From a virus (lineage: Duplodnaviria > Heunggongvirae > Uroviricota > Caudoviricetes): a stretch of DNA of 30,093 nt. The translations under genes were made by a program, and so were the position numbers. This document shows positions 14,406 through 15,179 of this stretch, piece by piece (positions within the stretch are counted from its first letter, which is position 1; each line of letters opens with the position of its first letter). The notes under the pieces were generated by a model, which made no database searches, had not been told where the DNA came from, and worked only from the letters and a program-made list of their open reading frames with translations. The stretch is taken from positions 1-30,093 of IMG/VR virus record IMGVR_UViG_2802429218_000005, one strand, 5' to 3'.

Positions 14406-15179
14406 ATGGATATTACTGAGTTTCCTTCTGGAGTAATTGAACACCTTGGCTGGTATGTATACCGATTGATTGATCCGAGGGACGGAAGCACCTTCTATGT
14501 AGGGAAAGGCAAAGGTAACCGCGTATTTGCCCATATGCGCGGTGAAGTGGCAGCGACTGATGATGACGAGTTACTGAGCAACAAGCTAAAGCAAATTAGA
14601 GAAATAAGGTTAGCAGGACTTGAGGTTATCCATGTCATCCATCGACACGGAATGACTGATGAAAAGACGGCGTACGAAGTTGAAGCAGCACTTATTGATG
14701 CCTACCCTGGGTTAACGAATATCATGAATGGTGCTGGCAGCAATGAATTCGGCGCCGCGCATGTCAAAGAGTTGATAGCAACATATCAACCCGAAACCAT
14801 AACATTTCATCATAAAGCATTAATGATTTCCGTTAACAGAAGTGCAAAGGATTCAGAGCTTTATGATGCGGTTCGATTTAGCTGGCGCATTAATGTCTCT
14901 CGCGCCAGCCAAGCAGAAGTCATTCTTGCTACTGTAAGGGGGATCGTTCGAGGGGTTTTCATTGCTGATAAATGGCTCAAATCAACACGTGAAAATTTCC
15001 CTACGATGAAATACTGGGACGAGGATCCGGACTTTGAGGCAACACAAAGTTCTCGCTATGGTTTTGAAGGTCGAGAAGCCCCACCTGAAATAGCAAATCT
15101 TTATCTTGGAAAAAAAATACCAGATGAATTAAGAAAAAAAGGAGCTATGTCCCCGGTCCGTTACTCACCTAATTTTTGA
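14406..15179 (+). CDS. GIY-YIG domain protein (putative nuclease), prophage-end moron candidate
   Basis: [29 protein letters not shown] matches GIY-x(10)-YVG pattern; likely start at ATG 14406 (MDITEF) rather than track TTG at 14355. Confidence 0.6.

Follow-up and report, generated by a model that had tools for sequence, protein, structure and literature searches.

A gene at the end of an e14-like Escherichia coli prophage very probably encodes the type IV restriction endonuclease CMoRE (PD-T4-3)

Introduction

What is encoded by a small gene that lies at one end of a prophage, next to a DNA invertase gene, and what would it do for the lysogen that carries it? We addressed this question in a window of 30,093 nucleotides (IMG/VR virus record IMGVR_UViG_2802429218_000005, positions 1 to 30,093), which is the whole stretch of DNA analyzed here; its DNA is that of E. 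coli, with strain TB06052 as the closest complete genome. An earlier note, made from the sequence alone, had described the gene as a GIY-YIG protein inserted between a prophage att scar and the invertase, and had offered two kinds of function for it, i.e. a nuclease for defence or superinfection exclusion and a homing-endonuclease-like selfish gene. Our analysis makes it very likely that the gene is CMoRE (PD-T4-3), a stand-alone modification-dependent type IV restriction endonuclease, which a temperate prophage carries as cargo at its end.

The family is known from published work as a single-gene, modification-dependent type IV restriction endonuclease (PMC12923530, PMC9519451, PMC12366544, bioRxiv 10.1101/2024.12.20.629700). 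Vassallo et al. 2022 recovered PD-T4-3 in a functional selection (PMC9519451), with ECOR68 as the source strain according to PMC12923530. The genes of O157, APEC O1, and Klebsiella, on their native promoters, lowered the plating of T2, T4, and T6 ~10^5-fold; on its own promoter, the APEC O1 gene was far weaker until this promoter was replaced (PMC12923530) and, therefore, the level of activity depends on the allele as well as the promoter. T-even phage DNA is degraded directly and the host cell is not killed: cultures with the O157 allele grew normally at an MOI > 1, and T4 DNA was depleted with no change in host DNA reads (PMC12923530). Because the cultures survived at an MOI > 1, the system provides direct defence rather than abortive infection. 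The CMoRE protein is a tetramer, and the purified enzyme degrades DNA containing 5hmC or 5ghmC while DNA with cytosine or 5mC is not cut; cleavage occurs at C-N11/N9-G, leaves 2-nt 3' overhangs, and requires two modified sites, and T4(hmC) is still sensitive while T4(C) escapes (PMC12923530). In a native host, the clinical isolate NILS69, deletion of PD-T4-3 sensitized the strain to Tevenvirinae, and PD-T4-3 failed against one related phage, NIC06_P2 (bioRxiv 10.1101/2024.12.20.629700).

Results

As a starting point, we considered the gene itself. The plus-strand gene claimed in the earlier note is an intact ORF at 14406..15179 (+) that encodes 257 aa, counted from the ATG, followed by a stop codon. 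An alternative TTG start at 14355 would extend the protein by 17 residues; we prefer the ATG, with which the homologues and the RefSeq annotation agree, as does the way residues are numbered in the crystal structures. The PADLOC model for PD-T4-3 (PDLC04031) aligned to residues 1-256 at model positions 1-255 of 256 (E=2.4e-140) and PHROG 5356 matched the protein end to end. A sequence search of the PDB returned the CMoRE structures of O157:H7 (9U75/9U8D; E=3.7e-172) and APEC O1 (9U7U/9U7Z; E=1.1e-150), both gapless across 257 residues and both titled 'GIY-YIG domain-containing protein'. The window protein has the length and the two-domain architecture of these proteins, and the gene occupies the same genomic position beside pinE as that of O157:H7. 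RefSeq entry WP_000355484.1 (strain ECE228) is 100% identical to the window protein. Other than the nuclease domain described below, no further Pfam domain was detected in the 257 aa, and the cassette travels without a partner gene. The immediate neighbours are pin and a gene for an AraC-family regulator, and no methyltransferase gene adjoins CMoRE within the window, as expected for a type IV system.

Compared with O157:H7 CMoRE (9U75), 253 of 257 residues match (98.4% identity). The two proteins differ by T51A, E55D, Q169K, and N197H (window residue given first), and the identical four differences separate the window protein from the allele of O157:H7 TW14359. None of these falls on a residue named as functional. 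E55 of the window allele is the residue of the other crystallized allele, APEC O1, and N197 (codon 14994..14996), which is His in the crystallized O157:H7 protein, is invariant in an alignment of 24 homologues (A1); in a second alignment of seven sequences (A3), one homologue from a jumbo phage also deviates in this column. At the nucleotide level, 22 codons differ synonymously between the window and O157 alleles and 4 non-synonymously, which argues for purifying selection on CMoRE. The gene is also common: in a megablast search, 838 of 5426 complete E. coli genomes carried it at >=95% nucleotide identity, some in copies that are 100% identical. In a collection of 5.8 billion proteins, it falls into a 90%-identity cluster with 1045 member sequences and a representative that is 100% identical to the window protein; the CMoRE family as a whole accounts for > 6500 such clusters.

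The GIY-YIG assignment of the earlier note held in its essentials. Pfam places aa 28-110 in LEM-3_GIY-YIG (PF22945; 54.2 bits against a cutoff of 27), while the match to GIY-YIG sensu stricto (PF01541; 13.9 bits) stays under the gathering cutoff of 22.6. The 'GIY-x10-YVG' motif that had been read from the sequence is real, but its letters and spacing need correction: the protein has G15-W16-Y17-V18-Y19 followed by Y31-V32-G33, with 11 residues between Y19 and Y31 and 13 residues between Y17 and Y31. The corresponding segment at 14445..14735 (+), supported by PF22945 and alignments A1 and A3, contains Y17, Y19, Y31, R39, H43, E93, N105, and the acidic lid D52-D53-D54-E55. In the published enzyme, Y17, Y19, and Y31 make up a 'GIYxY-YIG' motif, the active site lies beneath a 15-residue loop that has four acidic residues in a row, V92 and L96 are interface residues, and neutralization of the loop yields an enzyme that cuts ordinary DNA and is toxic to the host (PMC12923530). 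Every residue named or mutated in that study is present in the window protein, and so are the residues that we take for the catalytic Arg and Glu; the full set comprises Y17, Y19, Y31, R39, D52-D53-D54-E55, R80, V92, E93, L96, N105, and Y127. The lid with its four consecutive acidic residues is the same as in the APEC O1 protein.

Conservation points to the same residues. Y17, Y19, Y31, G33, R39, H43, E93, N105, and Y127 are invariant among the 24 homologues of 55-85% identity in alignment A1 and also in the seven-sequence alignment A3, which includes jumbo-phage homologues of 39-45% identity. The Arg and Glu of the GIY-YIG fold, which the earlier note had singled out for scrutiny, are thus accounted for by R39 and E93, both invariant across homologues of 39-85% identity. 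From this invariance and their position in the motif, R39 and E93 are probably the catalytic pair; the published study says only that an Arg and a Glu are conserved, and identifies UvrC as the structure closest to the CMoRE nuclease (PMC12923530). The catalytic core is common to the GIY-YIG nucleases, among them the N-terminal domain of UvrC, LEM-3/ANKLE1, and I-TevI. CMoRE differs from these in an additional tyrosine (Y19), in an acidic insertion of 15 residues, and in its unique sensor domain at the C-terminus, and has no role in repair or homing.

The C-terminal part, which the earlier note could not recognize, is indeed invisible to domain libraries: ~150 aa are without a Pfam or NCBIfam match, and the NCBIfam search of the whole protein returned nothing. 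It aligns without gaps to the crystallized proteins (9U75/9U7U). We place the modification-sensing domain at ~aa 125-257, i.e. 14778..15176 (+), with approximate limits and with Y127 included. In the published work, this region is a 5hmC/5ghmC-sensing domain of novel fold that has no homologue by sequence or structure, and 5hm-dCTP is bound by it via the main chain of Y127 (PMC12923530).

More distant relatives share this design. PD-T4-3Capno of Capnocytophaga (PMC12366544) belongs to the same family at 48% identity to the reference PD-T4-3, restricts T4 in a modification-dependent manner, and needs its GIY-YIG active site; it degrades modified but not unmodified T4 DNA and, at high dose, also Mom-modified Mu DNA (PMC12366544). 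By analogy, it is a possibility that the window allele could restrict Mom-modified (Mu-type) DNA as well. Full-length, two-domain homologues of 39-45% identity are also encoded by lytic jumbo phages of 250-285 kb, including Serratia phage Moabite (L089 2501..3265), Pseudomonas phage OBP (L090 2492..3253), and others. All catalytic residues and Y127 are conserved in these proteins, which are annotated as 'homing nuclease' or 'hypothetical', and the lid loop is much less acidic. They may serve as a weapon against co-infecting phages with modified DNA.

Next to the coding sequence lie candidate expression signals. The AT-rich region at 14231..14405 (+) presumably contains the native promoter, based on its identity to the O157:H7 locus: the 400 nt upstream of CMoRE are 96% identical (383/399) in the two loci, and the native promoter of O157 drove defence with a ~10^5-fold drop in T2/T4/T6 plating (PMC12923530). 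We infer that, in a lysogen carrying the window prophage, the gene would be expressed from this conserved upstream region. A simple sigma-70 scan upstream of CMoRE found no consensus site. Downstream, where CMoRE and pin converge, a hairpin at 15190..15248 with a minimum free energy of -19.8 kcal/mol (z = -2.8) is a probable terminator; a strict terminator scan called neither this hairpin nor any canonical terminator. In Rfam, the hairpin also weakly matched the 3' end of CssrB, an sRNA of Shigella (15203..15262, -; E=0.04, well short of the gathering cutoff), which probably reflects a shared pin 3' terminator.

The element that carries the gene is an e14-like prophage with a Mu-like tail. Rightward of CMoRE follow a Pin-type serine DNA invertase at 15240..15794 (-), whose orthologue is annotated as pinE in RefSeq and whose DNA is 92.8% identical to K-12 e14 pinE, an invertible tail-fibre segment at 15856..17478, a Mu-like baseplate/sheath/tube module that includes ymfQ, and HK97-type head genes. 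The invertible segment is bounded by 20-nt inverted repeats (15856-15875 and 17459-17478; 95% complementary), contains alternative fibre and assembly ORFs in opposite orientations, a feature shared with e14 and Mu, and has the stfP/tfaP/tfaE/stfE/pinE layout of e14. As described in the earlier note, CMoRE lies on the strand opposite to the structural (tail) genes, and it is convergent with the invertase gene.

On the other side of CMoRE, we found two nested scars of integration. The att scar reported in the earlier note is real: 14165..14230 (-) is a 3' fragment of serU (tRNA-Ser CGA; tRNA positions 25-90) in which 65 of 66 bases are those of K-12 serU. It is an internal scar, however, and the outer boundary is a second one, a 3' fragment of thrW (tRNA-Thr; tRNA positions 31-76) at 12303..12348 (-) that matches at 46 of 46 bases and also occurs in locus L001 at 13439..13484. 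Between the two scars lie the gene for the AraC-family regulator and a transposase fragment. Because the near-identical prophage of strain ECE228 (97.9% identical across 13600-16400) has an intact thrW followed by an integrase gene at its far end and begins at thrW, we take the thrW fragment as the true outer boundary of a thrW-integrated element. The serU fragment is accompanied by 278 nt of chromosomal DNA that normally lie downstream of serU (13887..14164, -), carried along with the scar; together, 13887..14230 (344 nt) are a copy of the native serU locus with 97.4% identity to K-12 2043190..2043533, and most of the sampled genomes match this piece at an annotated tRNA-Ser gene. Because the 3' end of serU and its host flank were copied together, the piece looks like the old right junction of a serU-integrated prophage that was moved with its flank, which implies that an ancestral prophage at serU would have taken this piece of chromosome along. 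From these nested scars, CMoRE lies between pin and the att core and thus at the extreme end of the genome of the ancestral phage. ARAGORN found no complete tRNA, and Rfam returned only weak, sub-threshold, partial tRNA-like matches at the serU scar.

To delimit the unit that moves, we compared the locus with an unrelated insertion context. A related prophage at ssrA in AR_0369 is 97.3% identical to the window across 14209..15242 only, and because the homology is confined to this interval, CMoRE together with its promoter region and the hairpin constitutes a separate unit of 1.03 kb, i.e. the CMoRE cassette (14209..15242, +). In the window, the cassette abuts the stop codon of the pin invertase gene on one side and the serU att scar on the other. 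In AR_0369 (L005 3921..6597), there is no pin, and the cassette is next to the genes of a type II restriction-modification pair, an endonuclease and a methyltransferase of the Dcm type, after which comes an acyltransferase gene; this arrangement is a small defence and cargo cluster at a prophage end. In a collection of phage genomes, a query of 14231-15830 (upstream region, gene, and pin) was matched in its pin part only, with the CMoRE portion unmatched, and two 'vB_EcoM' records that we inspected are prophage predictions that include host genes.

The slot beside pin has a different occupant in K-12. Homology to e14 extends across ymfQ, the tail-fibre genes, and pinE and ends at the pin stop codon (window 15239; L002 14241), right after which e14 has mcrA. 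Comparing this slot across related prophages, as had been suggested, shows mcrA in e14 and CMoRE here; the CMoRE cassette recurs at ssrA in AR_0369. Of the 5426 complete E. coli genomes, 569 have an intact pin/CMoRE junction and 330 an intact pinE/mcrA junction, the latter count being inflated by K-12 laboratory strains. We also surveyed the DNA downstream of pin across species, using 79 loci with one genome per species, of which 70 have >= 3 kb downstream; we grouped the ORFs found there into clusters and searched 112 representatives of these with PADLOC and Pfam. In these 70 loci, we found no CMoRE adjoining pin outside E. coli and no consistent defence cargo: in 13 P2-like loci, pin is followed directly by sheath and tube genes, and the others gave mixed matches comprising host-type genes, a few methyltransferases, DarA, and mad2. 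The survey does not support a universal defence hotspot beside pin. The mcrA/CMoRE pattern occurs only in e14-type prophages of E. coli and Shigella, and because neither CMoRE nor consistent cargo was found in the other species sampled, we regard it as specific to the e14-type prophage lineage.

Discussion

How would this gene act in the lysogen? The mechanism that we suggest for the window allele is carried over from the 98.4%-identical protein of the literature. CMoRE would assemble as a tetramer in which the C-terminal domain binds flipped-out 5hmC or glucosyl-5hmC, and a dimer would read two modified cytosines ~21 bp apart; the N-terminal GIYxY-YIG nuclease would then cut at C-N11/N9-G and leave 2-nt 3' overhangs. 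The lid of four acidic residues (D52-D53-D54-E55) would repel ordinary DNA, so that the host chromosome and the prophage itself would be spared. Incoming genomes of the T2, T4, and T6 type would be degraded early and the lysogen would survive, making this a direct defence and not abortive infection. The first function offered in the earlier note, a nuclease for defence or superinfection exclusion, is supported by the PADLOC and PDB matches to PD-T4-3/CMoRE and by the published assays on the family, and is made more precise by them.

The second function, a free-standing GIY-YIG homing endonuclease that would spread selfishly by cutting alleles without the gene, we consider highly improbable. 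A weak PHROG match to 'homing endonuclease' does cover the nuclease domain (phrog_314, E=0.0021), homologues in jumbo phages are annotated 'putative homing nuclease', and the gene is indeed mobile as a compact cassette of 1 kb. However, the Pfam search revealed no NUMOD or other homing-type DNA-binding module, the C-terminal domain is the published 5hmC sensor, and cleavage has no strict sequence need beyond two modified cytosines (PMC12923530); moreover, the cassette stands alone in intergenic cargo slots and interrupts no conserved target gene. Given that many nucleases at prophage ends kill the infected lysogen rather than the phage, and that the CMoRE mutant from which the acidic loop was removed is toxic to the host (PMC12923530), we also considered an abortive-infection or toxin-type nuclease. 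The intact loop D52-E55 in the window protein speaks against this, as do the normal growth of O157-allele cultures at an MOI > 1 and the depletion of T4 DNA with unchanged host reads, and we give this explanation very little credence.

Finally, the gene could be a silent or decaying passenger of a degrading prophage, without a current function. Its surroundings are pieced together from att scars, an IS fragment, and what remains of a conjugative element, the host prophage in O157 is heavily degraded, and no consensus promoter was found. Against these observations, the ORF is intact, several strains have identical copies, the gene is kept in the 838 genomes mentioned above, and the substitutions relative to the O157 allele are mostly synonymous (22 to 4). 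The O157 copy in particular, although it resides in a degraded prophage, is the allele that is active from its native promoter. A passenger without function is, therefore, very unlikely, and a CMoRE type IV restriction endonuclease remains our explanation for the gene.

The comparison with McrA (EcoKMcrA) of the cryptic K-12 prophage e14 gives the slot a further aspect. Both are single-gene, modification-dependent type IV enzymes, and both lie right after the stop codon of pinE at the att-proximal end of related prophages. They are not related to one another: McrA is an HNH nuclease and CMoRE a GIY-YIG nuclease, and mcrA is co-oriented with pinE while CMoRE is convergent with it. McrA has 5mC and 5hmC as its targets and is not known to act on glucosylated hmC. 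CMoRE, by contrast, cuts 5hmC and 5ghmC but not 5mC (PMC12923530). The two enzymes cover complementary ranges of modified cytosine. We speculate, with considerable doubt, that in e14-like, Mu-tailed E. coli prophages the position right after the pin stop codon might be a dedicated exchange point for single-gene type IV cassettes; the CMoRE cassette also lands in other prophage ends.

The gene is an ordinary copy of an already characterized and crystallized E. coli defence enzyme and, in this sense, is already known. Its RefSeq name, 'LEM-3-like GIY-YIG domain-containing protein', is a description of a domain and hides an experimentally validated and structurally solved defence enzyme that is present in ~15% of complete E. 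coli genomes. What our analysis adds is mildly new and descriptive only: the boundaries of the cassette, the alternation of mcrA and CMoRE at the pin stop codon, the part of the serU locus that was captured with its flank and records the history of the prophage, and the full-length homologues in jumbo phages. Lysogens with the window prophage should resist T-even phages, which bears on phage therapy and phage typing.

Beyond the thrW scar, the window contains further mobile and conflict-related DNA. Remnants of a conjugative or mobilisable element occupy 2930..7319 (-) and include genes for a TrbL/VirB6 protein (4496..5899) and a NikA-like protein (6954..7319), alongside an IS3-family transposase pair at 2930..4101. 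A low-GC (39%) island at 9135..12049 (-) holds a candidate ABC-three-component (ABC-3C) conflict system, in which we identified no middle component: it comprises a 581-aa DUF2326 ABC-type ATPase (PADLOC PDC-M68B, 2e-33; LmuB-like, 6e-11) and a 326-aa protein with SMEK_N and CTD10 domains. The O157 locus has, on the same side, a differently annotated ABC-3C set.
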